From positions 1-45,557 of the forward strand of contig JBDUDG010000001.1 in the NCBI GenBank assembly GCA_040003045.1: a stretch of 45,557 nucleotides of DNA, in the 5' to 3' direction. The notes under the pieces are model-generated. The model made no database searches. It was not told where the DNA came from and saw only the letters and a program-made list of their open reading frames with translations. This document shows positions 4,210 through 45,557 of the stretch, in pieces (the first letter of the stretch is position 1; every line of letters starts with the position of its first letter). The DNA comes from Saprospiraceae bacterium. Lineage in GTDB: Bacteria > Bacteroidota > Bacteroidia > Chitinophagales > Saprospiraceae. The position numbers and the translations under genes were made by a program.

Positions 4210-4565
4210 CGGGAAAAGTAGGAAAGCTATCTAAAAAGCCATTTTCGTTGTGTTAATGGTATGTTGTATTGACAGCCTTATAACCGAAAAGTTTAATGAC
4301 CTGGGCCCATGTAAGAAAGTATCAGCCTTATTACCCTGAGATATCTATTAGTTAAGATAATAATATGAATTATTCTTCTCTCACCATCCATTTTGTAAAT
4401 TTCTGAGAGGCAAGCCCTGAGCTTTGGAGTTTAATCATTTTCGCAGAGGCAAAAATGTGAACATTCAATATGACAATACGTTCTTCTCTCGTCATTATGA
4501 TCATGATCATCCGGCGATTCCTTCCCGCACAACAAAGATCCGGTATAAAATAAATTTTCCAATTA

Positions 4566-19794: not shown

Positions 19795-19820
19795 TTTTTT
19801 GTTTTTTGAATTGATTCAAA

Positions 19821-24933: not shown

Positions 24934-24944
24934 ATTTCTATTGA

Positions 24945-30328: not shown

Positions 30329-32080
30329 ATGACAGAAAAAAAACAAAAAAAGAAGATACCAAGCCCGGTAAAGGCGAGCGGAATAAGGTCTAAAGTCCGC
30401 TTTGATTATTCAGTTACTACAAAAAAGTATGTTGGTCCTCTTGGCTTCGGAGTAATCGTCACAGGGCTGCTGCTTGTCTTCAGTATTTTTAAAAATATAT
30501 CTCATCCCCTTTTCTGGGCAGATGAAAGTATGACTGCAATGGGCTCAGAAAGAGTGATCCATTATGGATATCCAAAAGTACATGATGGGAAAAATGTGTT
30601 TTATGATTTACGGCACAGCAACCCCACGCTTGGAATTAATGAGAAAAATGACGCTTATGTAGGTGGTGCCGGATGGCTTCAGTACTATTTTGGAATTATC
30701 GGATATAAGCTTGCTGCCACTTCTGATGATTTGTTTACAAAAACAGGGATTTACAGATCCACATTTGCAACTGCAGGTTTGTTGGGTCTATTCCTCTTCG
30801 GATTTTTAATTTCACGTTTGTTTGCAGATCAGTTTTCACGGTATGCATTTTTATTTTTATACTTTCTGCTCGAGTTATTTTCAGTTTCTTTAGCCTTATT
30901 GCTGAGGGAGGTGAGGTACTACTCTTTGGTCATGTTGCTGACCTCTATTATTCTGGGAATGTATTCTTTGTACCGGTTTCGCGGTTCATTTAATAAGATT
31001 GGTTTTACTGTCTCGGTATCGATTGCATTATGGCTACTCTTCAACACGTTTGCGCCTGTTTATTTCATCCTCGCTGCTTCAATTGGCGCATCCGAATTAA
31101 TCATGGTGATCGGTCAGGGCATTAAATCAAATCTGAAGAAATCCATCCTGGAAGCTTTGCCTGTAATTATAGCACTCCTTATTTCTTTTATGGCCATTAT
31201 ACCTCTAATGTCTTATTTCAGGACATTTGAAATATCAAAGGCAATGAGTGATTTTAATAATTATAATAATGAGATATATAAAACCAACCTGGCAACTGTG
31301 TTTAACTATTTTAAAAATTTTGAATTGTTGTGGTTAATGTTGCTTTTAAAAATCCTGATGGCTACCCAGTTCAGGTCAATCCTGAAAGAAAAATCTCCTG
31401 CGTTTAAAACTTCTTGTTTTCTGACACTGGTTTTCATCCTATTTGTGTTCGCCATTTCTAAAATTCCCAATTTCATTTATACTCGGTACATTATTTATAT
31501 GCAGCCTGTACTGGTGGCGATTATTCTTATTGATTTCTTTACGGTCATAAGGCAATTCACGAAGGGAAGTGAAAAAATGTGGCCGATTAAATTATGGATC
31601 CCGGTAGCGGCGTTTATATGCGGATTTTTTCTGATGGTGTTAGAAAATTTCAACTATATATCGGGCCACGTTTATGAATTGACTCATATCTATAAAGGGC
31701 CATTAGATTATACAATCCCTTATCTTAAAGAAAAATATCCACAATCAGATTCACTGGTTATAGCTGCTAATTACGAAGAGACGTCCTACATGTATTATCT
31801 CAATAGTAAGGTGATCATGGGTTTTGCGGGCAATAATTTACAGCAAGATTCGATTAAACAGCCGGATGTAATAGCATACCGGAAAACATGGGGTAATAAT
31901 GCAAGCATTTACAACAAATTTTTATCGATGGCACCTTTTGAGCCTGAAAAATTTCCTATAAAAGACAATCCTGTCAACAATATACCTGAGCTCAATTTCA
32001 GGCCTGCCTTTAATCACCAATTCAGGACATTGCTGCCAGCAGATGAGAAGGATGCGACGTATCTGTACATCAAAAAATAA
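30329..32080 (+). CDS. large polytopic membrane protein, putative GT-C-fold glycosyltransferase (family not recognised)
   Basis: 583 aa with ATG start and a Lys-rich cytoplasmic tail MTEKKQKKKIPSPVKASG. After TM1 comes LFWADESMTAMG (D65-E66), then ~11 further hydrophobic segments and a ~130-aa soluble C-terminal domain. There is no KPPL motif. The coding call is strong; the functional call is inferred from architecture. Confidence 0.5.
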   Translation: MTEKKQKKKIPSPVKASGIRSKVRFDYSVTTKKYVGPLGFGVIVTGLLLVFSIFKNISHPLFWADESMTAMGSERVIHYGYPKVHDGKNVFYDLRHSNPTLGINEKNDAYVGGAGWLQYYFGIIGYKLAATSDDLFTKTGIYRSTFATAGLLGLFLFGFLISRLFADQFSRYAFLFLYFLLELFSVSLALLLREVRYYSLVMLLTSIILGMYSLYRFRGSFNKIGFTVSVSIALWLLFNTFAPVYFILAASIGASELIMVIGQGIKSNLKKSILEALPVIIALLISFMAIIPLMSYFRTFEISKAMSDFNNYNNEIYKTNLATVFNYFKNFELLWLMLLLKILMATQFRSILKEKSPAFKTSCFLTLVFILFVFAISKIPNFIYTRYIIYMQPVLVAIILIDFFTVIRQFTKGSEKMWPIKLWIPVAAFICGFFLMVLENFNYISGHVYELTHIYKGPLDYTIPYLKEKYPQSDSLVIAANYEETSYMYYLNSKVIMGFAGNNLQQDSIKQPDVIAYRKTWGNNASIYNKFLSMAPFEPEKFPIKDNPVNNIPELNFRPAFNHQFRTLLPADEKDATYLYIKK

Positions 32081-32179
32081 ACATCTTGTATCTTGAGCCT
32101 TGTGGAAGGTCCTTTGGATTTTCAGATCTTAATACCTTCAGGCATGATGTCCGTCCTTTCTACATCTTAACACTATCGA

Positions 32180-34222
32180 ATGAACCAAAAAAAACAAAAA
32201 CCAACAGGTAAGCCAAAAAAGAAAGTTGCAGCGGAAAGAGTTGTTGCTGCTTCTCCTGCAAAAGAACGCAAAGCTGAATTTGAATTGATCCACTTCGACA
32301 CCAAAGTGTGGATTTTTATTGGCGCCTGCACATTTCTATTTTTTCTATTCGTTAGTTTGAAATGGCATAATTCATCGATTCCTCATTGGAGTCAGGTTGT
32401 ACCGGATGGCGGAGATCCGAACCGGGGGTTGGTAGCAGGTGAACCATTGTTCATCAGATCGGATGAATGGCTGGTGTATACCAGTTTTATATTGTCACAG
32501 GGGAGATTAGGATTTCCGGTTTCGAATGAGGCCTGGGGTGCGGGCAAATCACCATTGACATTTGGACTACCCACGAAAAATTTAGTGAGTGTCATTAAGC
32601 CATCCTTTTGGGGATACTATTTTCTTGATCTGGAAAGAGGTTTTTCATGGCATTGGAATTTCAGGATCTGGCCTTTTCTGATAGCTTCATTCCTGCTACT
32701 TATGCTCTTTACAGGGAATAATTTTTTGATAAGTGTTTTTGGCAGCTTATGGCTATTTCTGTCTTCCGCTATACAATGGTGGTCTATGAATACAGAGATA
32801 TTTACCTTTGGAAGTATAGCCGTTATTTCCTTCATTTATATCTTATATTCAGAAAAGCCCAGAACAATCCTGATCAATGGGATACTATTTTTGATATTCT
32901 CCTTCTCATTTGTCACCGTACTTTACCCTGCTTACCAGGTCCCTATGGCGTATTTTTTATTGGCCCTGATAGTTGGCTACCTTATTAAAAATAAAAACAC
33001 GACTAAATTAAAGTATAAAATAAATTTACCCTGGAAATTAATGGCACTGGGTGGAAGCTTGTTACTGTTGATAGTATTAATCTTAATGTTTTACCAGGAG
33101 ACAAAAGATACAATACATCTGATGTCCGATACTGTGTATCCAGGAAAACGTGATGAAAGGGGCGGAGACTTCGTGTTCTTAAAATTATTTGCGGATAATT
33201 TTGGCATGTTCATGGATATCAATAAATACCCTGCAAACTGGGGCAATATCTGTGAAGCATCAGCCTTCCTTATGCTGGCTCCATTTACGTCAATTATTAT
33301 TTTAATTGATTTTATTAAGACCAAAAAGGCAGATCCTTTGCTTATCTCCTTGTTGATATTTCAATTCGCGATGCTCGTCTGGATGTTAATTGGATTACCT
33401 GGAATTCTGGCCAAAATCACTCTATTAAATACGAGTCCTACCTATCGCACATTTTTCATTTTTGGCTTCGCTAATGTGATCACCACAATCGTATTTATGG
33501 CTCATCATAAAAATTCTATTTTAAAGAATACTCTTGTGACTAAAATTATTTCATTTGTAATTATTGCCGGACTTGTTTTTTCAATTAATTACTTTCTGAA
33601 TAAGCAGGCGAATACATTTTTTACCATGCCACAGGTATATAAATCAACAATCATATTGACTGGTCTTATTTGGTTAATGCTGTTTTTCAATTTTAATAAA
33701 ATATTCAAAATATCTTTTTTTGCACTTGGCTTACTTATCATTCTTCCCAATATCAAAATCAATCCGTTGAGTGTAGGTTTGTCTCCATATTATGACAACG
33801 TCGTATATAAAACCGTAACGGAGGTTGAGAAATCAGATCCCGGACAGGGTTGGATTCTTTTTGGCAAATTCACCTATGGTAATTTTCTTAAAGCGGCAGG
33901 CGTGAAATGCTTTAACGGTAATCAATGTGTGCCGCCTTTTGATAAACTTAAAATATTAGATCCTGAAATGAAAAGCGATAGTATTTATAACCGGTATGCT
34001 CATATTGATGTGCTTCCATTTATTGATGCTGATTCTGTTAAGTTTTCTTTAGTACAGAATGATCGCTATACCATAAAGATGGATCCATGTTCGCCCCGCA
34101 TTGTTCAGATGGGTATTAAGTACATCGCGTTCACATATCAGCCACAGCCTATTGAAGTGGAATGCATGACTGAGGTCAAAGAAGCGCCTGGACTATTTAT
34201 CTATAAACGAAATGATTTATGA
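32180..34222 (+). CDS. large polytopic membrane protein, putative GT-C-fold glycosyltransferase (family not recognised)
   Basis: 680 aa with ATG start and a Lys-rich tail MNQKKQKPTGKPKKKVAAER. After TM1 the external loop reads GEPLFIRSDEWLVYTSF (D95-E96). Many TM segments follow, then a ~140-aa soluble C-terminal domain. Its stop overlaps the next gene's start (ATGA). Confidence 0.5.
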   Translation: MNQKKQKPTGKPKKKVAAERVVAASPAKERKAEFELIHFDTKVWIFIGACTFLFFLFVSLKWHNSSIPHWSQVVPDGGDPNRGLVAGEPLFIRSDEWLVYTSFILSQGRLGFPVSNEAWGAGKSPLTFGLPTKNLVSVIKPSFWGYYFLDLERGFSWHWNFRIWPFLIASFLLLMLFTGNNFLISVFGSLWLFLSSAIQWWSMNTEIFTFGSIAVISFIYILYSEKPRTILINGILFLIFSFSFVTVLYPAYQVPMAYFLLALIVGYLIKNKNTTKLKYKINLPWKLMALGGSLLLLIVLILMFYQETKDTIHLMSDTVYPGKRDERGGDFVFLKLFADNFGMFMDINKYPANWGNICEASAFLMLAPFTSIIILIDFIKTKKADPLLISLLIFQFAMLVWMLIGLPGILAKITLLNTSPTYRTFFIFGFANVITTIVFMAHHKNSILKNTLVTKIISFVIIAGLVFSINYFLNKQANTFFTMPQVYKSTIILTGLIWLMLFFNFNKIFKISFFALGLLIILPNIKINPLSVGLSPYYDNVVYKTVTEVEKSDPGQGWILFGKFTYGNFLKAAGVKCFNGNQCVPPFDKLKILDPEMKSDSIYNRYAHIDVLPFIDADSVKFSLVQNDRYTIKMDPCSPRIVQMGIKYIAFTYQPQPIEVECMTEVKEAPGLFIYKRNDL

Positions 34223-35160
34223 TCGTTTCCGTTGTGATACCATGCTATAATGTGTCGAGACACATCGAACAGGTCATCAGGGAATTGCCTGAATCAATTA
34301 CTTATATCATCACTGTTAATGATTGTTCTAAAGATGATACAGAAAATATTCTGGTTAGACTTGCACCTGTAAACCAAAAAATCATTTATATCCCACACCC
34401 TGCAAACCAAGGGGTAGGTGGTGCCCTGATCACTGGCTACATAAAGTCAATGGAACTGAACTCTGATATAACGATTAAAATCGATGGTGATGGTCAGATG
34501 GATGCTTCATACATTGATGCAATGATCGAACCGCTCATCACCGACAAAGCAGATTTTACAAAAGGGAACCGCTTCAGGGATTTCAATGCACTACGAAAAA
34601 TGCCCCTGTCCCGAAGGTTTGGTAATCTTGGTCTTAGTTTCTTGATCAAGGCCGCATCAGGCTATTGGAATATATTTGATCCTAACAATGGTTTTACAGC
34701 CATAAAAAATGAAACACTTAAAAGCATTGATTTAGATAAAATACACAAAAGATATTTTTTTGAATCATCCATGCTGATCGAACTGTACCATGCAAATGCT
34801 GTCGTTCAGGATATATCAATGAAAGCCAGGTACGGTGATGAAATATCAGGTTTGTCTGCGACAAGATCTTTTTTTGAATTTCCGCCTAAACTTTTTGCAG
34901 CATTTATCAAACGTATCCTTCTAAAATATTTTCTATTTGAATTTAATATTGCCTCTTTGTATATTTTATTTGGAGTACCTCTTTTTTTTGTAGGCTTCAT
35001 TTACGGGTTGGTCAATTATATAAAATATGCGAGTAACCATTTACCTGCTCCGACCGGAACTATAGTAATTCCTACATTACTGATTACGCTTGGTTTTCAA
35101 TTGCTCCTGTCTGCCGCCAATTATGATATCGGCAATTATCCTCAAAAAAATAAATCTTAG
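34219..35160 (+). CDS. GT2 polyprenyl-phosphate sugar synthase (GtrB/ArnC/DPM1-like)
   Basis: 313 aa. Motifs VSVVIPCYNVSRHIEQVI, NDCSKDDT, IKIDGDGQMD and KGNRF are present, plus two C-terminal TM helices (LYILFGVPLFFVGFIYGLVNYI; IVIPTLLITLGFQLLLSAANY). This architecture is characteristic of lipid-phosphate sugar-forming GT2 enzymes. Confidence 0.8.
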   Translation: MIVSVVIPCYNVSRHIEQVIRELPESITYIITVNDCSKDDTENILVRLAPVNQKIIYIPHPANQGVGGALITGYIKSMELNSDITIKIDGDGQMDASYIDAMIEPLITDKADFTKGNRFRDFNALRKMPLSRRFGNLGLSFLIKAASGYWNIFDPNNGFTAIKNETLKSIDLDKIHKRYFFESSMLIELYHANAVVQDISMKARYGDEISGLSATRSFFEFPPKLFAAFIKRILLKYFLFEFNIASLYILFGVPLFFVGFIYGLVNYIKYASNHLPAPTGTIVIPTLLITLGFQLLLSAANYDIGNYPQKNKS

Positions 35161-35201
35161 TTCAATTCCCATATTTTCAATCTTTCCATGTTGCACGTTC
35201 T

Positions 35202-36083
35202 ATGAAAATTTCAATCCTCATACCTGTCTACAATGCAGAAAAATATCTGGAGGAATGTATTGTTTCTGCTTTAGATCAAACGTATCGCGATATAGAAATC
35301 ATAGCTATCAATGATGGCTCAACAGATGGATCACTTTCGATTTTGGAAAAATATTCTACTCAAATCCGAATCATCAATAAGACGCAAGGCGGTGTGGCAT
35401 CAGCCAGAAATGCAGGAATTAAAATAGCAACAGGCAAATGGATTAAATTGCTTGACAATGATGATGTGCTTTATCCCGAAGCACTGGCCGAAATGATACT
35501 TGAAGCCGGAAAAATAGATGTAGAAGATAAAATTCTTTATTCCAATGTAGACTATATAGACGCTACAGGAAAGGTGATCGGACATCTGAATGAACCTAAC
35601 TATAATGGACTAAACGATTTCGAACGGAATACAATTTTACTTGATCATAATATTGGCATACCTTCTACATGGCTAATACATAAATCGGTCATTGAGCATT
35701 GTGACCTGTTTGATGAAATCACTGAACATGATGATTATGAATACCATTTAAGAGTATGCCTGCTTTATAACTGCAAGTTCCATCTCGTGGAAAAGAAAAC
35801 GGTCAAGTACAGATTTCATGCGCAACAATTTACATGGCAGGTCATGCGTAAATTTCAAAACCAGGATGTATTGGTCACCAATATTCTGGCGAAGCTAGAT
35901 GAAGATGAAAGAAAAAGGTACCAGAAAGCATTAATCCACCTTAGAGCAAATCGATCTTTATTTGAAAAAACGGCCCATTGGATTAAGCCTGTTTTGAAAT
36001 ATATGCCCATTAAACTTGAAATCCGTTTGAGAACTATTTATCTGCAAATAGCAGAAAACAAAAAATCCAAATCAAAAAATTAA
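35202..36083 (+). CDS. glycosyltransferase family 2 (soluble, GT-A)
   Basis: 293 aa with ISILIPVYNAEKYLEECIVSALDQTYRDIEIIAINDGSTDGS and a DxD-type LLDNDDV motif. Confidence 0.85.
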   Translation: MKISILIPVYNAEKYLEECIVSALDQTYRDIEIIAINDGSTDGSLSILEKYSTQIRIINKTQGGVASARNAGIKIATGKWIKLLDNDDVLYPEALAEMILEAGKIDVEDKILYSNVDYIDATGKVIGHLNEPNYNGLNDFERNTILLDHNIGIPSTWLIHKSVIEHCDLFDEITEHDDYEYHLRVCLLYNCKFHLVEKKTVKYRFHAQQFTWQVMRKFQNQDVLVTNILAKLDEDERKRYQKALIHLRANRSLFEKTAHWIKPVLKYMPIKLEIRLRTIYLQIAENKKSKSKN

Positions 36084-36109
36084 ATACTGCTTTTGTAGCC
36101 TTCGCATCC

Positions 36110-36412
36110 TCAGATCTTTATTCTGTGATAGTAAATTGCCTGCCCTGTAGGCAATTTTTGTAATACACCAGGTTTATCTCTAAAAAACAGATCTACTAAT
36201 TTTTTGGTTTCCGCATAATCAAAAAAACCATAATCATCCAGAAGAATAATTCCATCATTTACCAATCGTGGCAAGAAGAATTCAAGTGCGGCAAGAGTAG
36301 GCTGCGAAGAATTCAAATCAATATGTAAAAACATAATCTTATCCGGCGGTGAATCTATGAACGTATCAGGAACAAATCCTATATGATATTTAATGATGTC
36401 CTTAAACTCCAC
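36110..36412 (-). pseudogene. C-terminal remnant of a TylF/MycF-type (macrocin-O-methyltransferase-like) SAM methyltransferase
   Basis: The ~100 codons match only the C-terminal half of the family (GFVPDTF...IMFLHIDLNSSQPTLAALEFFLPRLVNDGIILLDDYGF). The track start is GTG, and the first ATG is 27 codons in. The frame is closed by a stop at 36476-36478, inside the 3' end of the upstream gene, so there is no room for the SAM-binding N-terminal half. Confidence 0.5.
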
Positions 36413-36432
36413 CAGATTTTTAATTATATTAT

Positions 36433-37386
36433 TTATTTCGTACTGTAATAAACAACTGTGTCGCCTTTCATCGATTCATTCAATCGCAAAGCTTCCTTCC
36501 GGTATGAAGCTCGTTTGGCGGAAAATAACACGTTGAGCAAACTCTTAATTGGACCTTTTTTAGCTTCGCGCATTGAGATATTATGCATGTAATTTTCAGA
36601 TACATAGAATTGCTCATCTCTCGAGTCACAATAAATACCAGCCTGTGTCAACCCGGCTTTGTCCAACATCATTTTGATTCCCTGTAAAGATTGAAGATGT
36701 AAATGTCTTGGGGCATCAAGCTGGAACCAATTTTCCGCGTACCTACCAAATGAATAAGATACCAGTGGTGTTCTGATGAGGATGGTTCCGCCATATTTAA
36801 GATGCATTTTGGCCATCTTTAATGTTTTAACCGGATCAGGTGTATGTTCAAAGGAATGATGAAACATAATCAAATCAAACATTTCACTCTCTGGCAGGTC
36901 TTCTAAATTAATTCTCCTGATATCAACAGGATAGATTGATTCTCCAATAAACGGATCTATACCCATCAAATTCGTGTACCCCATTTTTTTTAGCATAAAT
37001 AATAGATGTCCCGCACCCGACCCAACATCTAAAATACGCCAGTGCTTCGGAGGTGATAACTTACCAATAGATAAAAGCGAGTAATCATAAAGTGCGTAGT
37101 GATCTATAAGCTTGAATAGCAATCCTCTTCTGTGAAATGAGCTTTTTGAAATAATATCAAAATAAAATGAAAATAATTTATTCTTTATCGAAACCGAAGA
37201 AAAGGAATAATATTTCTTGTCGGGATAATATTGGCCCAGGTTTTCCGGGATCTGATTTATTTGAATGGATTGGCAATGATTGCAAAAATCGTATTGAAAC
37301 TCATCACGCATCCCTAACTGCATTTCCCTTACCACGAATGATCTGAAATCTGACGTATTATCACATATTTTACAAGTATAATTCAT
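36433..37386 (-). CDS. class I SAM-dependent methyltransferase with N-terminal Cys4 zinc-ribbon
   Basis: 317 aa with CKIC...CNHC near the N-terminus, SAM motif I ILDVGSGAGHLLFMLKKMG, and a downstream FDLIMFHHSFEH / GGTILIRTP pattern. Confidence 0.8.
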   Translation of the reverse strand: MNYTCKICDNTSDFRSFVVREMQLGMRDEFQYDFCNHCQSIQINQIPENLGQYYPDKKYYSFSSVSIKNKLFSFYFDIISKSSFHRRGLLFKLIDHYALYDYSLLSIGKLSPPKHWRILDVGSGAGHLLFMLKKMGYTNLMGIDPFIGESIYPVDIRRINLEDLPESEMFDLIMFHHSFEHTPDPVKTLKMAKMHLKYGGTILIRTPLVSYSFGRYAENWFQLDAPRHLHLQSLQGIKMMLDKAGLTQAGIYCDSRDEQFYVSENYMHNISMREAKKGPIKSLLNVLFSAKRASYRKEALRLNESMKGDTVVYYSTK

Positions 37387-37460
37387 AATTTAAAATGAAC
37401 TTTATCAGTCATAAAAATGGAAAATGATCGCTTAGTTTCCATGTTGCGAAATTAAATTTT

Positions 37461-37468
37461 TATTTTTG
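37461..37468 (+). promoter_or_regulatory. candidate -7 promoter box for the 37502-40929 operon
   Basis: tatttttg matches TAnnTTTG, 34 nt upstream of the ATG at 37502, in a 115-nt divergent intergenic region. Confidence 0.35.
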
Positions 37469-37501
37469 CATTGAACCTCATTCTTCTTTTGACCAAAAGC
37501 A

Positions 37502-38296
37502 ATGCCCGACCATTCTTTTGCCGTTATGGCTTACCACGATTCCCCATATCTTGCTGCATGTCTGGAGTCATTAAAGGCCCAGATTGTCAAAAGTGAAATA
37601 TACATTACTACATCTACGCCATCTTCCTTTATTGAGAATATAGCCAGGAAATACGAAGTTGAACTTTTTATTACAACAAAAGGACAAGGTATAGCGCATG
37701 ACTGGAACTTCAGTCTAAACATGGCCAAAACCAAATATGTAACTCTGGCTCATCAGGATGATCTGTACCATAACGCGTATTCAACAAGTTGTATTAAGGC
37801 AAGCGAAAAGTATAGAGATACTTTAATCTGTTTTACCGGATACGACGAAGTAATAAACAATGCTAAAAGAACACGAACACTACTATTAAGTGTAAAAAGA
37901 TTGATGCTCAACTCTGCTATGCCAATTACTAATTACATTCATAGTAAAATCAGGAAGAATTTACTTCTGATCGCTGGTTGTCCTATCGCAGCTCCGAGTG
38001 TAATGTTTAATCTGGAACTTTTAAAGGATTTTCAATTTTCCTCTGAATTCTCAATCAATATGGATTGGGATGCCTGGTTCAGATTAGCGAATGTGGAAGG
38101 GAGATTTGTCTATGTAAAAAAGGTACTACTCACCCACAGAATACATCCTGGATCCGCCACGACAGCAGGATTAAAAGCAAATACAAGACAAGATGAAGAT
38201 TTGAAAATATTCAAACGATTTTGGCCGAATTTACTTGCTAAGTGGTTGGCGAAGATTTATGCAAAAAGCTACAAATCGAATATTGACACAGACTGA
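37502..38296 (+). CDS. glycosyltransferase family 2
   Basis: 264 aa with FAVMAYHDSPYLAACLESLKAQ at the N-terminus and a HQDDLY acidic motif, a pattern seen in GT2 enzymes of polysaccharide loci. Confidence 0.7.
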   Translation: MPDHSFAVMAYHDSPYLAACLESLKAQIVKSEIYITTSTPSSFIENIARKYEVELFITTKGQGIAHDWNFSLNMAKTKYVTLAHQDDLYHNAYSTSCIKASEKYRDTLICFTGYDEVINNAKRTRTLLLSVKRLMLNSAMPITNYIHSKIRKNLLLIAGCPIAAPSVMFNLELLKDFQFSSEFSINMDWDAWFRLANVEGRFVYVKKVLLTHRIHPGSATTAGLKANTRQDEDLKIFKRFWPNLLAKWLAKIYAKSYKSNIDTD

Positions 38297-38308
38297 TTAA
38301 TCCCCGCC

Positions 38309-39331
38309 ATGAATTCAAAATTTCTGTCCATCGTAAAATATATTGTCCTGCTTGGGGTTGCATTTGCTTTGCTTGCTTTGGCATTTAAAGGGATAAGTGT
38401 GTACGCCATACTGGACGAAATGCTGCAGGCAAAATTATCCTGGTTACTCCTTGCAATCATTATCAGCCTTACGGGATTTGTCAGTCGTGCAATTCGCTGG
38501 AAGTTACTGATTGAATCATTAGGCTATACACCATCCTTAAAGAATACAACTGCTTCCCTGATGGTCGGATATTTTGCAAATCTCGCTTTACCCAGGCTAG
38601 GAGAGGTGACACGATGCGGAACATTGAGCAAAGCTGAGTCGATTCCATTCAGCAGTTTGCTGGGTACAGTCATCGTAGAGCGGGTCATTGACGTCCTCAG
38701 TCTGCTTATACTATTATTCCTTTCATCACTCCTGGAAATAGACCGGTTAGGAAATTTCTTACACGCCAATATCATTCAACCACTTGGAGAAAAGCTTCAA
38801 AATGTCATGTCATCACCAAAGACAATGACTATTGTTATAATTCTTTTCATCGCGCTACTCATGACTATTTTCATCATCATGAGACGATCAAAACAAAATA
38901 AAGAAGAATCAAAAATTATTCATCTGATCAAAGGTCTTTTGAGTGGATTGCAATCTGTAACAAAACTTAAACGACCCTGGCTATTTATTTTTCATTCTGT
39001 CTTTATCTGGTTTCTTGCATTCCTTGGGATGTATGTCAGCTTCCAGGCATTGCCGGCGACAAGTGATTTGGATATAACTGCAGCTTTATTTATCCTGGTC
39101 ATCAGTGGATTAGGCATGGCAGCTCCGGTACAGGGTGGAATAGGAGCTTTTCATTTATTGGTTTCGCAGGGATTGACCTTTTATGGCTTGACTCAAAAAG
39201 ACGGTCTGGCATTTGCAACTTTGGTGCACACACTTTCACTGGCTTTGGTAGTACTATGTGGAATTACTTCGTTGATATTTCTTTTTTCAACTAATAAAAA
39301 ACGTTTAAACGAAAGCAAGCTTCAACAATAG
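38309..39331 (+). CDS. UPF0104 / lysylphosphatidylglycerol-synthase-TM-region family protein (flippase-like domain)
   Basis: 340 aa with ~8 TM segments. It has the characteristic RAIRWKLLI motif after TM2 and LPRLGEVTRC, and lies 12 nt downstream of a GT2 gene. Confidence 0.7.
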   Translation: MNSKFLSIVKYIVLLGVAFALLALAFKGISVYAILDEMLQAKLSWLLLAIIISLTGFVSRAIRWKLLIESLGYTPSLKNTTASLMVGYFANLALPRLGEVTRCGTLSKAESIPFSSLLGTVIVERVIDVLSLLILLFLSSLLEIDRLGNFLHANIIQPLGEKLQNVMSSPKTMTIVIILFIALLMTIFIIMRRSKQNKEESKIIHLIKGLLSGLQSVTKLKRPWLFIFHSVFIWFLAFLGMYVSFQALPATSDLDITAALFILVISGLGMAAPVQGGIGAFHLLVSQGLTFYGLTQKDGLAFATLVHTLSLALVVLCGITSLIFLFSTNKKRLNESKLQQ

Positions 39332-39402
39332 CCCATTTTAAAACAATGAAGCTTTAAAAGGGTATATTAGTTATCTGTTTTAGAATAAAACATTTTCAAA
39401 CC

Positions 39403-40125
39403 ATGTTTTCATTAAAATTTCAGGAAATAATCCGCAAACCCATCATTGGCATAAGCGCACTAATGCACAAAACAGGTGCTGCTAAAGTCTGGATGAGATT
39501 TACATCTGCGACGCAACGCTTTATCATATGGCGGTCCCCATTCATGCGATCGTTGAAGGCAACTCATTTCATTGACATCGGAGCGAATACAGGTGAATTT
39601 GCTTTAATAGCGAGAGCAGCATTTCCATCTGCTAAAATAATTTCCTTCGAACCGCAACCTATCGCATTTGATGCACTGAATAAGGTGATGAAAAAGGATA
39701 AAAACTTTCTGTCCTACCAAGTCGCCCTGGGAGAAAAAGAATCAACGGCCGTCATGTATGTTTCCCCTTTTAGTCCATCCAGTTCGTTTCTTTTCAAGAG
39801 CGAAGACGCTCAGGCACAGGAAATGCATTTGAAGACGCTGGACCAATACGAAAATTTTATAACCCCCGCTGACACAACGATCATGAAGATGGATGTTGAA
39901 GGATATGAATTGTCCATATTGAAAGGTGCGGAATTATTTTTAAAAAAGACCGACTGGATATATATCGAATGCAGGGCCACTGAACCTATTGGTTGCAGTT
40001 TTAGCGAGATTTATGATTTCCTCATTCATCGAGGCTGGGAATATCATGGTGCATATGACTCTGCATTTTCTACAAATGGCAGGCTAATGTATTTTGATGC
40101 TCTTTTTAGGAACACAAAAAAATAA
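39403..40125 (+). CDS. FkbM-family methyltransferase
   Basis: 240 aa with FIDIGANTGEFALIARAAFPSAKIISFEPQP and MKMDVEGYELSILKGA, the two FkbM signature blocks. Confidence 0.85.
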   Translation: MFSLKFQEIIRKPIIGISALMHKTGAAKVWMRFTSATQRFIIWRSPFMRSLKATHFIDIGANTGEFALIARAAFPSAKIISFEPQPIAFDALNKVMKKDKNFLSYQVALGEKESTAVMYVSPFSPSSSFLFKSEDAQAQEMHLKTLDQYENFITPADTTIMKMDVEGYELSILKGAELFLKKTDWIYIECRATEPIGCSFSEIYDFLIHRGWEYHGAYDSAFSTNGRLMYFDALFRNTKK

Positions 40126-40152
40126 AATTTAGCTGATCGGCATCCAACATCC

Positions 40153-40929
40153 ATGAAAATAACTGTCATCACTCCAGTGTATAATGGCGAATTAACCATC
40201 CGATCATGCATTGAAAGTGTGTTAAACCAGACTTATACTGAGGTTGAATACATCATCATGGATGCCGTCTCAAAAGATAATACCCTGAGCATTATTCATG
40301 AATATCCTCAGGAAAAAATAAAGCTCTTCTCTGGAAAAGATCAGGGTCTTTATGACGCCATTAATAAAGGTATGGATATCGCCTCAGGAGACATAATGTG
40401 CTTTCTCTGTGCTGACGATATGTACGCCGATAATTTTGTTCTTCGAAAAGTGGCCCATGCATTTCAGTCAGATCCTGACATTGATATCGTTTATTCAGAT
40501 ATTGTCTATGTCAACAGAAACAATATTTCCAGAATAGAACGCTATTGGAAATCTTCTTCATTCGTGCCTGGATTGTACCGGAAAGGATGGCTTCCTCCCA
40601 ACACTTCATTTTTCATCAAAAGAACATCAATGTTGCATCACGAAAAATTCAATATTAAATTCAGATATGCAGCAGATTATGAGTTGAATTATCGTTTGTT
40701 AGAAAAATACAGGCTAAAATCTGTCTACTTACCGGAAATTTTAGTCCTTATGAGAAGTGGAGGGGTTAGTAATTCAAATATGACCAATATTTACAAAAGC
40801 CTGAAAGATTGTTATGACGTATTACTATTTCATCATGTCAAATATCCATCCCTTTATATTATCAATACAATGTTTTACCGATTGAAACAAATTTATATTC
40901 CGTCTAAAATCAAAAGGAAATATGGGTAA
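40153..40929 (+). CDS. glycosyltransferase family 2 (WcaE-like size class)
   Basis: 258 aa with ITVITPVYNGELTIRSCIESVLNQTYTEVEYIIMDAVSKDNT and an acidic motif CADDMY. Confidence 0.85.
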   Translation: MKITVITPVYNGELTIRSCIESVLNQTYTEVEYIIMDAVSKDNTLSIIHEYPQEKIKLFSGKDQGLYDAINKGMDIASGDIMCFLCADDMYADNFVLRKVAHAFQSDPDIDIVYSDIVYVNRNNISRIERYWKSSSFVPGLYRKGWLPPNTSFFIKRTSMLHHEKFNIKFRYAADYELNYRLLEKYRLKSVYLPEILVLMRSGGVSNSNMTNIYKSLKDCYDVLLFHHVKYPSLYIINTMFYRLKQIYIPSKIKRKYG

Positions 40930-40935
40930 TAAAAT

Positions 40936-41601
40936 TTAATTTACCCAATAACACAAAATATCATCTTTAATCTCCAACTGATAATTTGAATTTTTTGCTC
41001 TGATATATCCAGTCACTTTGACTACTTCAGGATAATCGCGTTTGCCGGTGAATAGTCTTGCATCATCAATCAAAATGATGTGATTAAACTGGTTCTTTCT
41101 ATTAAAAATCGCATCTATTTCCTCATATATTGGGCAGGATTTGTCACCCTTTGCAGTTACACCTGCAGAATAATGGCCATCCAGCCAAAAAACGACAGGT
41201 TCATGAATATTATTTAATATTTCCGGTAACACCTTGCCGCTATCTCCCTGAACGATGGTGACTTTTTCATTATTTCTAAATCTTTTTTTTGCTTTTCTAT
41301 ACAAATGACCTGCTAACTCTATCGAAATAATTTTATTAAATCTATCTTTTTGAGCTTCTACCATATCTCCTAAAAATGTTCCGGTCTCGATGAAGACATG
41401 GTATCCGGATTTTCTTTGGTAGTCTTCAATAGCCATTTGTTTTACGAAATGAGGCGGAGGGGCAGGGCATCCGGCTTTCTGCCAATTATCAAATTCTCGT
41501 TGCTGGTAACTGTTGTTCAATTTGTTCAAAACAAATAGTGGCAGAAAAGGCTTCAAGTGATACCTGAGGACATTTTGAACAAAAGAAATTAAGTTTCCCA
41601 T
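40936..41601 (-). CDS. putative class I SAM-dependent methyltransferase
   Basis: 221 aa with FIETGTFLGDMV (motif I-like), IISIELAGHLYRKAKKRF, VTIVQGDS and VFWLDGHYS. The assignment is by pattern only. Confidence 0.45.
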   Translation of the reverse strand: MGNLISFVQNVLRYHLKPFLPLFVLNKLNNSYQQREFDNWQKAGCPAPPPHFVKQMAIEDYQRKSGYHVFIETGTFLGDMVEAQKDRFNKIISIELAGHLYRKAKKRFRNNEKVTIVQGDSGKVLPEILNNIHEPVVFWLDGHYSAGVTAKGDKSCPIYEEIDAIFNRKNQFNHIILIDDARLFTGKRDYPEVVKVTGYIRAKNSNYQLEIKDDILCYWVN

Positions 41602-41708
41602 TTACTGCTTTGTGTAATTACATCAAGTTGATCGCTTCGGACTAAAATACCGAAATGCGCGCTACAATGTGGAAATCCAAAAATCAAAATTTTATTTAAA
41701 CAAGATAT

Positions 41709-43385
41709 CTATCCCTTCCTCTTAAACACCTTAATCTGCTGATCACTTTTTGGTGCATATCCTGTAACTTCTGCATCCCATTTATACATGGTCGTTTCAT
41801 TGTAGATGTCCACAATGCCCACCATGTCATAATTGGCAGCTGAATATCCATTGAACCAACCGAATATTGTATCAGGTGCACCCACTTTTCCAAGCCATGA
41901 TGCTGAAATCAGGCAATAGACAATAAATTTCGGTTTATTTTTTTCAATTTCAGCAGCCATTTCATTTTGCATCTGCTGATTGAATGGCTGGATCTCCACC
42001 AGAGGATAGGTATATATATAACCAGTTGCGGAAAGACGATCGGCATAAAACATAATCTGTGGTTCGGAACCCATCACGGCGATCCTGTCCGTGTCGGCTG
42101 AATTCTTTTTTATATACTCCGCAATTTTTATGGATTCGTTGAATGGGTTATTTCCATATTGCTTTTTGGCAATCTGCGCCGTAGTTGAATTAAAATAAAA
42201 ATCTTTGTTTCCTGAAACTGCTGCGATTCCTGCGAAGCAGAAAATAAGAAATGGCATGATCGCGATATACCTGCTTTTGGAATAGCGGCTGAGGATATCT
42301 GTGAGATAATATAAAGCCACACCTCCCATCAAACCAATCGCAGGTAAAAAACAAATGAAATAGTGCCGCCTGAAATAAAATCCGGGACACACTGTCAGAA
42401 AGGCTGAAATGCTGAAAAGAAAAATAAACAATTTCTGTTTCACAGTAAATTTTGAAAGGAAGGTTAGAATGATCCCTGCAAAAAATAGAATCCAGAAAAA
42501 AGTAAATTCACTCAGCATTGGTTTGAAACGAGCTACAAATTCTTTCATGCCGTCATCTACTGAAAGACCAAGTGCATATTTGCCTGCATAGGCCATTGTC
42601 CAGAACCAGAATTTATCGAATGTCCCTGCTCCTTTTAAGATAAGGACCAAAATGGCATATGGCAGTAAAGCTGCAACGCTGTAAACGAGTCCTTGTAGTA
42701 ACACCGGGCCTATTTTAACAGGCTTTTCCATCAAACCGGTCATGACTACCGCAATTCCTCCAAACACAATGAAGAAAACTGCCTGCTGCTTCATCATAAA
42801 TGCAAGACCCATCATTAGCCCAACCAGACCTGCTGTAATGATCGTCCTCTGATCATAGAAGCGAGAGAGAAAATATAATGCGATGGCCACAAAAAAAGTG
42901 ATGAAGTGTGTAGCATGCGCAGCGAAGCCTAACACTGTCGGGCTCACTGACATGATCGCATAAACACCAGCGGCAAATAGAGCCACCTGCGCATTAAATA
43001 ATTTTTTAAACGCCAGGAAAAGAAATAAGATGGTACCTATTCCCATCACAAGAACTCCAAAATGAATACCAGAATTTGTCTCTCCGAAAATGGTCATTAT
43101 AAATGCATACATGGCAGAGGTCCCGGGAAGCTTCATCGTGTATGCCTCTTTAAAAGGAGCAATACCTTTCATCAGCAACTTGGCGATATAGGCATACTCA
43201 CCTTCATCTCTTTCAAAAGCAATGTTCAATAAGCGAAGACGAATCAAAGAAGTGCAAAAAATGACAATACCTAACGCAGCCCAATAGAATGTATCACTGA
43301 TAGGCTTTTCCTGAGGGGCAACACGAGCAGATTTTTCAGAAACTTTCTTTGACTTAGGAACAGGTTTTTTGCCGGAATTACTCAT
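41709..43385 (-). CDS. ArnT-like GT-C glycosyltransferase (divergent)
   Basis: 558 aa with a Lys-rich tail MSNSGKKPVPKSKKVSEKSAR. After TM1 comes NIAFERDEGEYAYIAKLLMKG (D60-E61), followed by ~12 TM segments and a ~150-aa soluble C-terminal domain. Confidence 0.65.
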   Translation of the reverse strand: MSNSGKKPVPKSKKVSEKSARVAPQEKPISDTFYWAALGIVIFCTSLIRLRLLNIAFERDEGEYAYIAKLLMKGIAPFKEAYTMKLPGTSAMYAFIMTIFGETNSGIHFGVLVMGIGTILFLFLAFKKLFNAQVALFAAGVYAIMSVSPTVLGFAAHATHFITFFVAIALYFLSRFYDQRTIITAGLVGLMMGLAFMMKQQAVFFIVFGGIAVVMTGLMEKPVKIGPVLLQGLVYSVAALLPYAILVLILKGAGTFDKFWFWTMAYAGKYALGLSVDDGMKEFVARFKPMLSEFTFFWILFFAGIILTFLSKFTVKQKLFIFLFSISAFLTVCPGFYFRRHYFICFLPAIGLMGGVALYYLTDILSRYSKSRYIAIMPFLIFCFAGIAAVSGNKDFYFNSTTAQIAKKQYGNNPFNESIKIAEYIKKNSADTDRIAVMGSEPQIMFYADRLSATGYIYTYPLVEIQPFNQQMQNEMAAEIEKNKPKFIVYCLISASWLGKVGAPDTIFGWFNGYSAANYDMVGIVDIYNETTMYKWDAEVTGYAPKSDQQIKVFKRKG

Positions 43386-43591: not shown

Positions 43592-44671
43592 TTAAGCACA
43601 AAACCTAACCAACAACTCCACTATTTTCTCAGACGCCTTCCCCGATCCATAAAGCTGAACATCATCTCCCCTGACACTGGCCTGCTCATGAATCAAAGAC
43701 ACCATATCCACATCTTTCGATGGCGGAAGCACTACATTCCAACGATGCTGGACCAATTCAACCCACTCCGTTTCAGATCTCAGGGTCACACAAGGCACGC
43801 GATGGAAATACGATTCCTTCTGCACGCCTCCTGAATCCGTAATGATCAATGCTGCCTGGCTTTCCAGTTCGATCATGTCCAGGTATCCAAGAGGTTCAGT
43901 CAGAAATACATTTTGCAGACTAATATTAAATTCATTCAGCTTGGTGCGTGTCCGGGGATGCAAAGGCAATATCACAGGCACTTTTTTCGCAACTTCATCC
44001 AATACATCACAAATCAATTGCAATGCTTCTGCTGTATCCGTATTCTGCGGACGATGAATTGTAGCGAGATAGTATTTCTTGGGCTCGATATTCAGATGCT
44101 TCAGCAAATGAATCCGCTTATGCGCTTTTTCAGCATAATACAATGCCGCATCATACATCACATCACCTACCTGGAAGATTTTATCTGATGAAAAACCTTC
44201 CACTTTCAAATTATAATCAGCTGTATCCGTTGGCGTGAAAAGTAAATCAGCAATATGATCCGTCATCATGCGATTGATTTCTTCAGGCATCATTCGGTTG
44301 AATGAACGAAGGCCCGCTTCAATATGTGAAATCGGAATATGCAATTTTACCGCTGCAAGCGCGGCTGCCAATGTTGAATCTGTATCACCAAAGACATTTA
44401 CAATATCAGGTTTGATTTCTTTCAGTAATATTTCGATCTGTTCCATCATCCGGCCCGTCATGGCACCATGACTTAAGCCATTTATACCCAAATGATAATC
44501 CGGAGCTTTCAATTCCAATTCATCAAAAAATATATCTGACATGTTCGGATCAAAGTGTTGGCCGGTGTGAATGATGATCTCTTCCACTCCACCATGTTTT
44601 GCCAAAGCCCTGGACACAACGGATGCTTTTACAAATTGCGGTCTGGCTCCCAGTACCGTGACAATCTTCAT
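43592..44671 (-). CDS. wecB: UDP-N-acetylglucosamine 2-epimerase family (non-hydrolysing; WecB or WbpI-type)
   Basis: 359 aa with MKIVTVLGARPQFVKASVVSRAL, IIHTGQHFDPNMSDIFF, GDTDSTLAAALAA and ITDSGGVQKE. The substrate (UDP-GlcNAc versus a 2,3-diacetamido uronate) cannot be decided from sequence by eye. Confidence 0.88.
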   Translation of the reverse strand: MKIVTVLGARPQFVKASVVSRALAKHGGVEEIIIHTGQHFDPNMSDIFFDELELKAPDYHLGINGLSHGAMTGRMMEQIEILLKEIKPDIVNVFGDTDSTLAAALAAVKLHIPISHIEAGLRSFNRMMPEEINRMMTDHIADLLFTPTDTADYNLKVEGFSSDKIFQVGDVMYDAALYYAEKAHKRIHLLKHLNIEPKKYYLATIHRPQNTDTAEALQLICDVLDEVAKKVPVILPLHPRTRTKLNEFNISLQNVFLTEPLGYLDMIELESQAALIITDSGGVQKESYFHRVPCVTLRSETEWVELVQHRWNVVLPPSKDVDMVSLIHEQASVRGDDVQLYGSGKASEKIVELLVRFCA

Positions 44672-44707: not shown

Positions 44708-45557
44708 TTAATGATTTCCTGAAAACGGATGTACCGTTGTATGTAATTGAGTCAGTGGATGTTTCTCTCCTTCATCACTCAGGTTGCCATTGCGAATATC
44801 ATACACCAATTGTATTGAAGGCTTTGCATCTTCCATCGTAAATCCATTCCCATCAAGTATTTGCTGATAACTGATCGTATGCAGGTCTGCAAAACCTTCA
44901 CTGAATTCAAATTCCTCCTGCTCAATGGTGATCGATCTGTAAGTTCGCCCGCCTTTTTTCCTGATTTCCTCCGGTATCGTATCTGCATTGATACTTAAAA
45001 ACCAACGTACTCTCGCTTTTTCAAATTCAAGATACCCCGCGGCACGGTCATGCAGATGCTGGTGTACATGATTGACCTTAACTGGTCCAAATATCCATAA
45101 TAACATATCAAAAAAATGCACTCCGATATTTGTGGCGATACCACCTGATTTTCGCTCCTCCCCCTTCCAGCTCGTGTAATACCAATTACCTCGTGAAGTA
45201 ATATAGGTAAGATCGACATCATATATTTTATCAGCAGGGCCTTTCTGAATTTTTTCACGCAATGCGATCACATTCGGGTGCAGTCTTAATTGTAAAATAG
45301 TGGATACTGAATGATGCGTATCGTACGCAATCTCACTCAGAGCATCGACATTCCATGGATTCAACACGATTGGTTTTTCGCAAATCACATCCGACCCATA
45401 ACGCAATGCAAATCGTATGTGTGCATCGTGAAGATAATTGGGCGAACAAATACTGATATAATCGACTCCCGAGCCTTTCCTTTTGAGCTTTTCAAGGTGC
45501 CTGTCGAAACGCTCGAACTCCACGAAAAAAGCAGCTTGCGGAAAATAGCTATCGATG
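44708..45557 (-). CDS. Gfo/Idh/MocA-family oxidoreductase, WbpB-like sugar-nucleotide dehydrogenase (5' end outside the window)
   Basis: The track ORF starts at a GTG, but the frame stays open to the window edge (IDSYFPQAAFFVEFERFDRH...), so the Rossmann N-terminus is missing. ISICSPNYLHDAHIRFALRYGSDVICEKPIVLNPWN is typical of WbpB-type enzymes. Confidence 0.8.
   Translation of the reverse strand, partial: IDSYFPQAAFFVEFERFDRHLEKLKRKGSGVDYISICSPNYLHDAHIRFALRYGSDVICEKPIVLNPWNVDALSEIAYDTHHSVSTILQLRLHPNVIALREKIQKGPADKIYDVDLTYITSRGNWYYTSWKGEERKSGGIATNIGVHFFDMLLWIFGPVKVNHVHQHLHDRAAGYLEFEKARVRWFLSINADTIPEEIRKKGGRTYRSITIEQEEFEFSEGFADLHTISYQQILDGNGFTMEDAKPSIQLVYDIRNGNLSDEGEKHPLTQLHTTVHPFSGNH

Follow-up and report, generated by a model that had tools for sequence, protein, structure and literature searches.

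A Saprospiraceae glycan island with a predicted polyprenyl-phosphate-sugar synthase, three GT-C-type protein families and an MprF-type candidate flippase

The stretch of DNA analyzed here (the window) comprises 45,557 nucleotides of a Saprospiraceae bacterium (contig JBDUDG010000001.1 of GenBank assembly GCA_040003045.1), and our subject is a glycan gene island at positions 30329-43385. It is very probable that this island combines a polyprenyl-phosphate-sugar donor with GT-C-type glycosyltransferases and is not a Wzx/Wzy or ABC-transporter locus. With the same high confidence we propose that one of its products, p3, makes a polyprenyl-monophosphate sugar and that three others, p1, p2 and p12, are periplasm-facing GT-C enzymes using lipid-linked donors. 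A broader reading, in which the island encodes a GT-C-dependent extracytoplasmic glycosylation system based on polyprenyl monophosphate and operating without a phosphoglycosyltransferase, Wzx, Wzy or WaaL, stands at about even odds. That the soluble GT2 glycosyltransferases and methyltransferases of the island elaborate the monophosphate-linked sugar before a candidate flippase, p8, translocates the product falls just short of an even chance.

The island holds 12 open reading frames (ORFs), p1 to p12, with 96% of the interval coding, and all 12 are real, conserved, glycan-related genes. They form four blocks of alternating orientation, with p1-p4 and p7-p10 on the + strand and p5-p6 and p11-p12 on the - strand; the last of these blocks runs on into wecB and then into a GFO/IDH/MocA oxidoreductase gene cut by the window edge. 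A first-pass annotation, made from the sequence alone, had called every gene from 30.3 to 43.4 kb glycan-related; this holds for the 12 ORFs, with the amendment that glycan genes extend beyond 43385 into this last pair. Because a promoter and terminator scan of 30-45.5 kb was uninformative (fewer sites than in shuffles), operon boundaries were taken from strand and gaps only. Families were assigned by scanning the window ORFs against Pfam and NCBIfam. The scan covered ORFs of at least 100 aa except 695-1018 (107 aa), 4370-4798 (142 aa) and 6704-7006 (100 aa); two further ORFs outside it are SusC/SusD-like by similarity. For comparison we used related loci (L numbers), 80 of them collected with the p1 family alignment, and a Logan contig, L001, that is identical to the window and continues 2.4 kb past its right edge. 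The genes of the island and its right flank are listed below (GT, glycosyltransferase; TM, transmembrane; SAM, S-adenosylmethionine; AF2, AlphaFold2; DPMS, dolichyl-phosphate-mannose synthase).

p1, 30329..32080, + strand: predicted GT-C-fold glycosyltransferase of a family without a Pfam or NCBIfam model (AF2 and Foldseek)
p2, 32180..34222, + strand: DUF7657 (1.3e-115) and DUF7654 (9.8e-33), predicted GT-C fold (Pfam, AF2, Foldseek)
p3, 34219..35160, + strand: DPMS/GtrB/GacI-type GT2 with two C-terminal TM segments, predicted polyprenyl-phosphate sugar synthase
p4, 35202..36083, + strand: soluble GT2 (Pfam 2.5e-35), without TM helix or DxDxQ
p5, 36110..36412, - strand: 3' remnant of a TylF/Methyltransf_24-type methyltransferase gene, its N-terminal SAM-binding half deleted
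p6, 36433..37386, - strand: class I SAM methyltransferase, Methyltransf_23 (Pfam 8.5e-21), soluble, without TM helix
p7, 37502..38296, + strand: soluble GT2 (Pfam GT2 and Glyco_tranf_2_3), ending 12 nt before p8
p8, 38309..39331, + strand: stand-alone MprF-type TM domain (UPF0104/COG0392/LPG_synthase_TM) with about 8 TM helices, candidate flippase
p9, 39403..40125, + strand: FkbM-family SAM methyltransferase (RfbT-like), soluble (Pfam 2.6e-16; TIGR01444 94 bits vs a cut-off of 38)
p10, 40153..40929, + strand: soluble GT2 (Pfam 2.5e-27)
p11, 40936..41601, - strand: soluble protein of 221 aa, probably a divergent class I methyltransferase (weak matches)
p12, 41709..43385, - strand: PMT_2 (ArnT/PMT-like) GT-C (Pfam 3.4e-13) with a C-terminal soluble domain
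p13, 43592..44671, - strand: WecB, non-hydrolysing UDP-GlcNAc 2-epimerase (TIGR00236 311 bits vs 210; Pfam Epimerase_2)
p14, 44708..45557, - strand: GFO/IDH/MocA sugar oxidoreductase (Pfam), cut by the edge; full gene at L001:2283-3254, 323 aa

The three polytopic proteins p1, p2 and p12 share a Lys-rich N-terminal tail (8-11 K/R within the first 35 residues), TM1 and an Asp-Glu dyad after it (D65E66, D95E96 and D60E61, respectively), as the first-pass annotation had noticed. The p1 protein, with the motif W63-D65-E66, has some 11 TM helices and ends in an alpha/beta domain (residues ~455-583). W63, D65 and E66 are invariant across 39 p1 homologues; among 41 homologues of p2, D95 is invariant and R93 and E96 nearly so. 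Family models place p12, which clears the Pfam PMT_2 gathering score (50.6 vs 26.1) with no NCBIfam ArnT match. By contrast, p2 matched only DUF7657 and DUF7654 in Pfam, p1, even at E = 10, matched nothing in Pfam or NCBIfam, neither of the two matched the PMT_2 or ArnT model, and all three stay under the ArnT equivalog score. Single-sequence searches of solved structures with p1, p2, p12 and p8 gave no match, nor did profile searches with the p1 and p2 alignments, so the GT-C call for p1 and p2 comes solely from the predicted fold. AF2 models built from the 39 and 41 homologues reached a pLDDT of 88.6 for p1 and 91.0 for p2, each with a pTM of 0.89. The top 18 Foldseek matches of p1 are all GT-C proteins (ALG12, ArnT, AftA, STT3, AglB, ALG9, DPY19, PglB, Pmt and Emb; E 4e-6 to 5e-2, TM-scores mostly 0.4-0.5), as are the top 13 of p2 (AftA, PglB, EmbA/B, STT3 and AftD; TM-scores 0.3-0.44). 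Transporters rank below these with probabilities under 0.2, and no Wzy, WaaL or Wzx structure appears in either list. A fold comparison had been proposed in the first-pass annotation, and for p1 and p2 it came out in favor of the GT-C-like layout described there. With p1 and p2 placed by AF2 and Foldseek and p12 by PMT_2, all three are predicted GT-C-type proteins, and an identity as Wzy, WaaL, Wzx or a transporter was ruled out by the same evidence. Recent paralogy was ruled out as well, BLASTP giving no significant mutual similarity; by sequence comparison the three represent unrelated families.

Homologues of p1 number at least 361, occur in Bacteroidota, Nitrospirota, Desulfobacterota-type metagenome-assembled genomes (MAGs), Omnitrophota and the Candidate Phyla Radiation (CPR), and include one that bears the name 'RgtA/B/C/D-like'. 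An orthologue of p12 lies at the same position in L083, a 1.58-Mb related contig. A literature search for DUF7657 returned no papers, and one for a Bacteroidota GT-C O-oligosaccharyltransferase nothing applicable. A disordered Lys/Pro-rich tail of 25-35 residues opens p1, p2, p12 and a 555-aa protein of L084 despite their unrelated families (window 30329-30430, 32180-32280 and 43300-43385; L084:9081-9170); it may be a localisation or interaction signal.

The donor enzyme of such a system would be p3, which has the architecture of a membrane-associated DPMS/GtrB/GacI-type GT2. The first-pass annotation had pointed to its DGDGQMD and KGNRF motifs and two C-terminal hydrophobic segments, and both were seen here, the segments at residues 233-265 and 282-300. 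Its best sequence match in the Protein Data Bank is the P. furiosus Dol-P-Man synthase 5mlz (6e-9), and its best NCBIfam matches, AglJ and PpgS, are both far under cut-off. DGDGQ is of the DxDxQ type, the metal and diphosphate site common to DPMS, GacI and WpsA (PMC10821137); a motif check did not find it in p4, p7 or p10. The 5mlz match, the DxDxQ motif and the TM tail thus support the earlier assignment, and p3 is predicted to be of the polyprenyl-phosphate-sugar synthase type. Its start codon overlaps the stop codon of p2 (ATGA), a sign of translational coupling, and in about 16 of 18 related loci a DUF7657 gene is followed by a GT2 gene, each motif-checked GT2 carrying DxDxQ. In three Cytophagales loci the GT2 after DUF7657 is short (240-246 aa, with DGDGQ) and is itself followed by a 3-TM DUF2304 ORF. 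The small proteins that activate GacI and PpgS, GacJ and Rv3632, belong to DUF2304 (bioRxiv 10.1101/180810). Because a DxDxQ GT2 follows DUF7657 and is joined in Cytophagales by a DUF2304 partner, we propose that p2 and p3 form a GacL/GacI-like pair with p2 as the GacL/YfhO-like partner.

The island also encodes soluble enzymes and the remnant of one. Three GT2s had been described as soluble, and p4, p7 and p10 are indeed all GT2 by Pfam and lack a TM helix; p10-like genes often follow a DxDxQ GT2 (L007, L026, L029, L082 and L084). Three intact methyltransferases and one remnant had also been claimed, and here p6, p9 and the remnant p5 stand while the third, p11, is only probable. Pfam matches of p5 are confined to the C-terminal part of the profiles. 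It corresponds to the last 96 residues (178-273, 89% identical) encoded by an intact TylF-like gene (276 aa, L054:4743-5573), relative to which p5 has lost ~177 N-terminal codons, leaving a 100-codon ORF with a GTG start 20 nt downstream of p6. The direct matches of p11 are weak (RrnaAD 0.017, Erm 0.003), and its family, with 7190 representatives at E<=1e-3 in a library clustered at 50% identity, has no Pfam model. Because the p11 domain is often fused to GT2 or FkbM/Methyltransf_11 domains (proteins P0349-P0498), and because that of two homologues weakly matches Methyltransf_24 or Methyltransf_23, p11 is probably a methyltransferase and, being present in L006, L021, L033, L054 and L084, a conserved island member; the family looks like an unmodelled glycan-methyltransferase family. 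As the methyltransferases are soluble, lack a TM or signal segment and need SAM, methylation must, judging by their sequences, be cytoplasmic and act on a nucleotide- or lipid-linked sugar, which makes the periplasmic-face methylation proposed at first pass unlikely. The simple GtrABC/ArnCT-type scheme proposed with it fails in another respect, for it has no role for three soluble GT2s. Oligosaccharide assembly on undecaprenyl monophosphate, for which the lactococcal polysaccharide pellicle (PSP; PMC10821137) offers a precedent backed by experiment, would by analogy explain them better.

The candidate flippase, p8, had been recognized as a UPF0104/MprF-flippase-like protein, and this identification is secure: it matches LPG_synthase_TM across the whole profile (1.8e-36) and exceeds the cut-off of the TIGR00374 'flippase-like domain' model (64 bits vs 43). 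At 340 aa it consists of the TM domain only, without the aminoacyl-phosphatidylglycerol synthase domain (DUF2156); the bifunc_MprF model scores 20.5 bits against a cut-off of 600, so p8 is not a bifunctional MprF, and its listed close homologues are all ~340 aa long. None of the flippases already assigned to such systems (GtrA/SMR-like, ArnE/F, Wzx-like GacK and MATE) was found among the scanned window ORFs, and p8 is, by its family, the only flippase candidate in the island. We know of no UPF0104 protein with a demonstrated role in flipping polyprenyl-linked sugars, nor of any test of the MprF-type flippase role predicted in 2015 for archaeal AglD. The first-pass notion of a non-GtrA flippase candidate thus holds insofar as p8 is the sole candidate, but the idea is not new: MprF-like domains beside GT2 and PMT/STT3-like genes of archaea were predicted to be glycosylation flippases in 2015 (PMC5898192). 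The p7-p8 pair is kept in L006, L009/L083 and L054, and the gene directly upstream of a p8-like gene encodes a soluble GT in four loci, of family GT2 in the window and L083, GT4 in L005 and GT11 in L033. Three genes recur in the same order in L084 and L087: an MprF-like gene, one for a polytopic protein of 523-555 aa that bears a Lys tail, TM1 and 'WRDEHQ', and a short gene for a p3-like GT2. In L085 such a short GT2 gene stands directly after the MprF-like gene. The L084/L087 trio is a three-component layout with an MprF-type protein in the flippase position and matches the archaeal neighbourhood (PMC5898192).

The p8 family has at least two conserved contexts, and p8 as a dedicated glycan-island component in general was ruled out, two of six sampled contexts being housekeeping (panC-panD-p8-cytidylyltransferase). 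In other Bacteroidota a close p8 homologue (54-55% identity) lies in an operon of panC, panD, p8 and a small cytidylyltransferase gene that overlaps its end (L086:5784-8501; JGI contig of P0314); L086 also carries a second LPG_synthase_TM paralogue. Upstream of the p8 homologue of L085, a DUF2142 membrane-protein gene is split into ORFs of 107 and 255 aa (L085:5623-6828) and is either a pseudogene or the result of an assembly frameshift.

The window is as telling for the genes it lacks. No scanned window ORF matched the Wzx, Wzy, Wzz/Wza, ABC-exporter, WbaP/WecA or WaaL families, which bears out the absences listed at first pass, and a Wzm/Wzt pair (ABC2_membrane with ABC_tran) was found neither in the scanned window nor in the orthologous slot of L083. 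No acceptor pathway was found in the window, no AglB/STT3-type oligosaccharyltransferase was recognised by sequence, and no deacetylase accompanies the adjacent p7 (GT) and p8 (UPF0104) in the island. The 2.4 kb past the right edge contain the rest of the oxidoreductase gene, a YiaD-type OmpA lipoprotein gene and an opposite-strand ArnT-like gene, with no Wzx, Wzy, ABC exporter, initiating phosphoglycosyltransferase or ligase. The L083 slot holds genes for a TonB receptor, a protein with a type IX secretion system (T9SS) tail, two p1 paralogues, two methyltransferases, a GT2, DUF7657, a TM-bearing GT2, a p7-like GT2, an MprF-like protein, PMT_2, DUF3667, wecB, GFO and OmpA, and no wzx, wzy, export or initiating-transferase gene within 10 kb. 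The advance check for wzx, wzy and an initiating transferase past the right edge therefore failed to overturn the first-pass reading, and because both the edge and the L083 slot are free of export and initiation genes, an ordinary O-antigen locus is not supported. WecB, found in the same neighbourhood in L083, is a conserved neighbour and a possible donor supply.

Beyond these two sites, the p1-p2-p3 triplet is conserved in Saprospiraceae, Chitinophagales and Cytophagales MAGs, often near an MprF-like gene, PMT_2, a p10-like GT2 and p11. Among 122 ORFs surrounding nine triplets, a Pfam census counted GT2 18 times, DUF7657 10, Methyltransf_23 9, LPG_synthase_TM 6, FkbM 5, PMT_2 4 and DUF2304 3 times, and no classical export or initiation family was among the 25 most frequent, a tally that single Wzx/Wzy-type genes could escape. 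Two other settings bear on how these genes are used. The DUF7657 gene of Longitalea luteola, which has a DADGQ GT2 with it, belongs to a rhamnan-type locus that also contains Bac_transf, RgpF, an ABC transporter, Wzx and Wzy_C; its most plausible role there is to decorate a polymer made in the conventional way. In Nitrospirota, CPR and Gammaproteobacteria MAGs, p1 homologues stand beside a p3-like GT2 alone.

From these observations we propose a pathway of four steps. Judging by its architecture, motif and synteny, p3 would use a nucleotide sugar to charge undecaprenyl phosphate, at the inner leaflet, with a sugar that is perhaps an N-acetylhexosamine made with WecB. Before it leaves the cytoplasm, part of the lipid-linked sugar would be elongated by p4, p7 and p10 and O-methylated by p6, p9 and probably p11, a stage that mirrors WpsC-F of lactococcal PSP and AglG/I/E/P of Haloferax. 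The lipid-linked mono- or oligosaccharide would next be flipped by p8. Finally p1, p2 and p12, with predicted GT-C folds, would use the Asp-Glu dyad in the first periplasmic loop to transfer and perhaps polymerise the sugars. The acceptor would be made elsewhere and would most likely be a surface polysaccharide or lipopolysaccharide (LPS), as indicated by the Longitalea context and the ArnT-like neighbours; proteins are also possible acceptors, because PMT_2 enzymes include protein mannosyltransferases.

The general logic of a GT2 donor synthase working with GT-C enzymes is textbook, with GtrABC, ArnC/T, Rgt, GacIJKL and CsbB/YfhO as known examples, and the functions given to the island genes are all predictions. 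In Rhizobium (RgtA/B/C/D with RgtE) and E. coli (ArnC/ArnT), one polyprenyl-phosphate-sugar synthase serves several ArnT-like GT-C enzymes acting on lipid A or core. The island differs in having no ArnE/F-type flippase and in that p1, p2 and p12 fall below the ArnT equivalog score. In Haloferax Agl N-glycosylation, a methyltransferase step acts on the glycan linked to dolichyl phosphate (Dol-P). This assembly of a methylated oligosaccharide on Dol-P resembles the scheme proposed here (PMC5898192; PplT preprint 10.1101/2022.03.11.483950), and the NCBIfam matches of island GT2s to AglJ (p3) and AglG are weak. As in the island, the MprF-like TM domain of archaeal AglD/arCOG00899 is linked to GT2 and PMT/STT3-like GT-C genes (PMC5898192), but in AglD the GT2 and flippase-like domains are fused, whereas p7 and p8 are separate genes, and the host of the island is a bacterium.

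Among bacteria, extracytoplasmic glycosylation by GT2 and GT-C enzymes now includes pentofuranose systems described in 2024, and the flippase component varies between systems (PMC11127046). The GacI/J/K/L system of S. pyogenes, CsbB/GtcA/YfhO and GtrA/B/C resemble the island in that a DPMS-type GT2 makes an undecaprenyl-phosphate-linked sugar that a GT-C enzyme transfers outside (bioRxiv 10.1101/180810; PMC11127046). In the island the DUF7657 gene is coupled to that of the GT2, and in its Cytophagales relatives the GT2 has a partner from the GacJ family, DUF2304. It departs from these systems in its MprF-type protein in the flippase slot, against GtrA/SMR, Wzx (GacK) or MATE proteins, in its three GT-C enzymes of three families, and in its extra soluble GT2s and methyltransferases; unlike the Gac synthase with its GacJ partner, p3 bears its own TM tail, and the host is Gram-negative. 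In lactococcal PSP, a GacI/J-type enzyme makes GlcNAc-P-C55, cytoplasmic GTs elongate it on the monophosphate carrier, a flippase exports the product, and GT-C enzymes polymerise and attach the glycan (PMC10821137). This scheme (WpsA/B, WpsC-F, WpsG, WpsH/I and WpsJ) is in our assessment the only known bacterial one with a role for every gene class of the island. Its flippase, however, is Wzx-type, it has no methyltransferases, and its acceptor (rhamnan) is encoded in the same cluster; the likeness is one of inventory and synteny, from which assembly of an oligosaccharide on the carrier is inferred here. GpgSDF of Pseudomonas aeruginosa and HexSDF of C. difficile also place a soluble GT gene next to a stand-alone UPF0104 gene (PMC12713373; PMC10128005), but their products are glycosylated phosphatidylglycerol or diradylglycerol, they include a deacetylase and a GT of another family, and they have neither GT-C nor DPMS-type GT2. 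The island is new in three respects: in a bacterium, an MprF-type protein fills the predicted flippase slot; its GT-C enzymes come from three unrelated families, of which two are uncharacterised; and several methyltransferases and soluble GT2s stand alongside, without a phosphoglycosyltransferase, Wzx, Wzy or ligase.

Several observations weigh against this pathway. Proteins of the p8 family also occur in housekeeping contexts without glycan genes, and the studied stand-alone relatives GpgF and HexF serve glycolipid, not polyprenyl, pathways (PMC12713373, PMC10128005). Because the homologous island L087 also carries a Wzx-type gene, the MprF-like protein is not necessarily the donor flippase. 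A p3-like GT2 lies within 5 kb of the p1 homologue in only about 36% of loci, p1 and p2 lack sequence-level likeness to solved GT-C enzymes, and their TM-scores are modest (0.3-0.5). The soluble GT2s and methyltransferases, finally, could serve an undecaprenyl-diphosphate (Und-PP)-linked pathway encoded elsewhere in the genome.

The last point leads to the strongest alternative, in which only monosaccharides travel on the lipid, as in GtrABC, ArnC/ArnT, GacIJKL and RgtA-E: p3 would make the donor, p8 would flip it, and p1, p2 and p12 would each add it to a different acceptor site, while the soluble GT2s and methyltransferases build the acceptor (Und-PP-linked or other), with genes elsewhere for its initiating enzyme, flippase and ligase. 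This is quite possible, if some way below an even chance. Modules without soluble GTs do exist, namely the p1 homologues with a p3-like GT2 in Nitrospirota, CPR and Gammaproteobacteria MAGs, and the trio of L084 and L087 (p8-like, GT-C-like and p3-like GT2) has the same economy; the Longitalea DUF7657 gene inside a classical locus and the Wzx-type gene of L087 also speak for it. It leaves 6 of the 12 genes without a role inside the island, however. Throughout Saprospiraceae and Cytophagales, the genes for soluble GT2s and methyltransferases accompany the core, with no phosphoglycosyltransferase among them, and directly upstream of the flippase candidate stands a soluble GT, not the DxDxQ GT2.

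Much less probable is a glycolipid or lipoglycan pathway, in which p7 glycosylates a membrane glycerolipid that p8 flips, as GpgS/GpgF or HexS/HexF do, the flipped glycolipid being either the end product or a primer that GT-C enzymes extend with p3-derived donors, in the way mycobacterial phosphatidylinositol mannosides become lipomannan and lipoarabinomannan. MprF itself flips phospholipids, the only stand-alone UPF0104 proteins with genetic data adjoin a GT in glycolipid operons (PMC12713373, PMC10128005), and p8 relatives are also found in lipid or housekeeping contexts. The adjacency of a GT gene upstream of p8 is kept while the GT family varies, which suits this pathway, yet one of the variants, the GT11 (fucosyltransferase family) that L033 has in place of p7, suggests that the acceptor is an oligosaccharide and not a bare lipid. 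Also against it, p7 is a GT2 and not of the GT4 or monogalactosyldiacylglycerol-synthase type of GpgS and HexS, and the deacetylase present in both known systems is missing. Nor do we know of any such lipoglycan in Bacteroidota. An ordinary O-antigen or capsule locus, with Wzy, WaaL or Wzx among the polytopic proteins or export and initiation genes just outside the window, would fit the low GC content of the island (0.373 vs 0.41 in the flanks) and the variable gene content within a conserved chromosomal slot, but it is largely refuted and most improbable given the GT-C-only Foldseek matches of p1 and p2 (transporters under 0.2 probability), the PMT_2 assignment of p12, and the lack of such genes in the 2.4 kb past the edge and in L083.

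The GC content of the island (0.373) is below that of both flanks (0.412 and 0.419), and its conservation is mosaic. Relative to L005, L006 and L054, the flanking genes (SusC-like and T9SS protein) are 69-73% identical, p1 62-63% and p11 63-66%, while p2-p10 reach 75-92% except for p8 in L005 (60%). Together with the low GC content (0.373 vs 0.41), this mosaic suggests either that the inner block was exchanged laterally or that p1 has undergone diversifying change. GT-C genes are not confined to the island: counting two upstream and one beyond the right edge, there are six in ~48 kb. The other genes noted in the window and at its edge are these.

4566-7028: AsmA/YhdP-like protein
7256-12994: SprB/CHU_C-type T9SS adhesin, 1912 aa
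13000-14319, - strand: ATG22/MFS-type transporter, 12 nt downstream of the 14332-15993 gene
14332-15993, - strand: ArnT-like GT-C (PMT_2), with the DE dyad after TM1 but without a Lys-rich tail
16092-16631: 179-aa ORF with one TM segment, preceding the 16677-18344 gene
16677-18344, + strand: ArnT-like GT-C (PMT_2), with the DE dyad after TM1 but without a Lys-rich tail
18472-23093 and 23473-28217: two tandem SusC/SusD-like pairs
28701-30167: T9SS-secreted protein with BNR-like repeats and a Por_Secre_tail sorting domain
L001:1-897: sixth GT-C-like (ArnT-like) gene, beyond the right edge

A spacer of 161 bp separates p1 from the divergently transcribed gene for the T9SS-secreted protein (28701-30167). 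L003, L005 and L083 likewise encode a T9SS-tail protein at this position, and the islands of L085 and L087 are flanked by T9SS-tail genes as well.

If our model holds, DUF7657/DUF7654 and a widespread polytopic family without a Pfam model become GT-C glycosyltransferases. The island would then make a genomic case, the first from bacteria, for an MprF-type protein flipping polyprenyl-linked sugars, and the route by way of an oligosaccharide on undecaprenyl monophosphate, known only from lactococci, would extend to Gram-negative bacteria. Annotation pipelines that look for Wzx, Wzy and ABC hallmarks overlook such islands. The most far-reaching version of our proposal is that Bacteroidota and the other phyla that carry p1 possess a self-contained undecaprenyl-monophosphate pathway with a DPMS-type GT2 as initiator, a short methylated oligosaccharide built by soluble enzymes, MprF-type flipping and two uncharacterised GT-C families, and without a phosphoglycosyltransferase, Wzx, Wzy or WaaL; we regard it as tentative and, taken as a whole, rather unlikely. 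Were it true, p8 would be the first polyprenyl-glycan flippase of the MprF superfamily, and the pathway would be the Gram-negative counterpart of the archaeal Agl pathway and of the lumenal ALG stage of eukaryotes.

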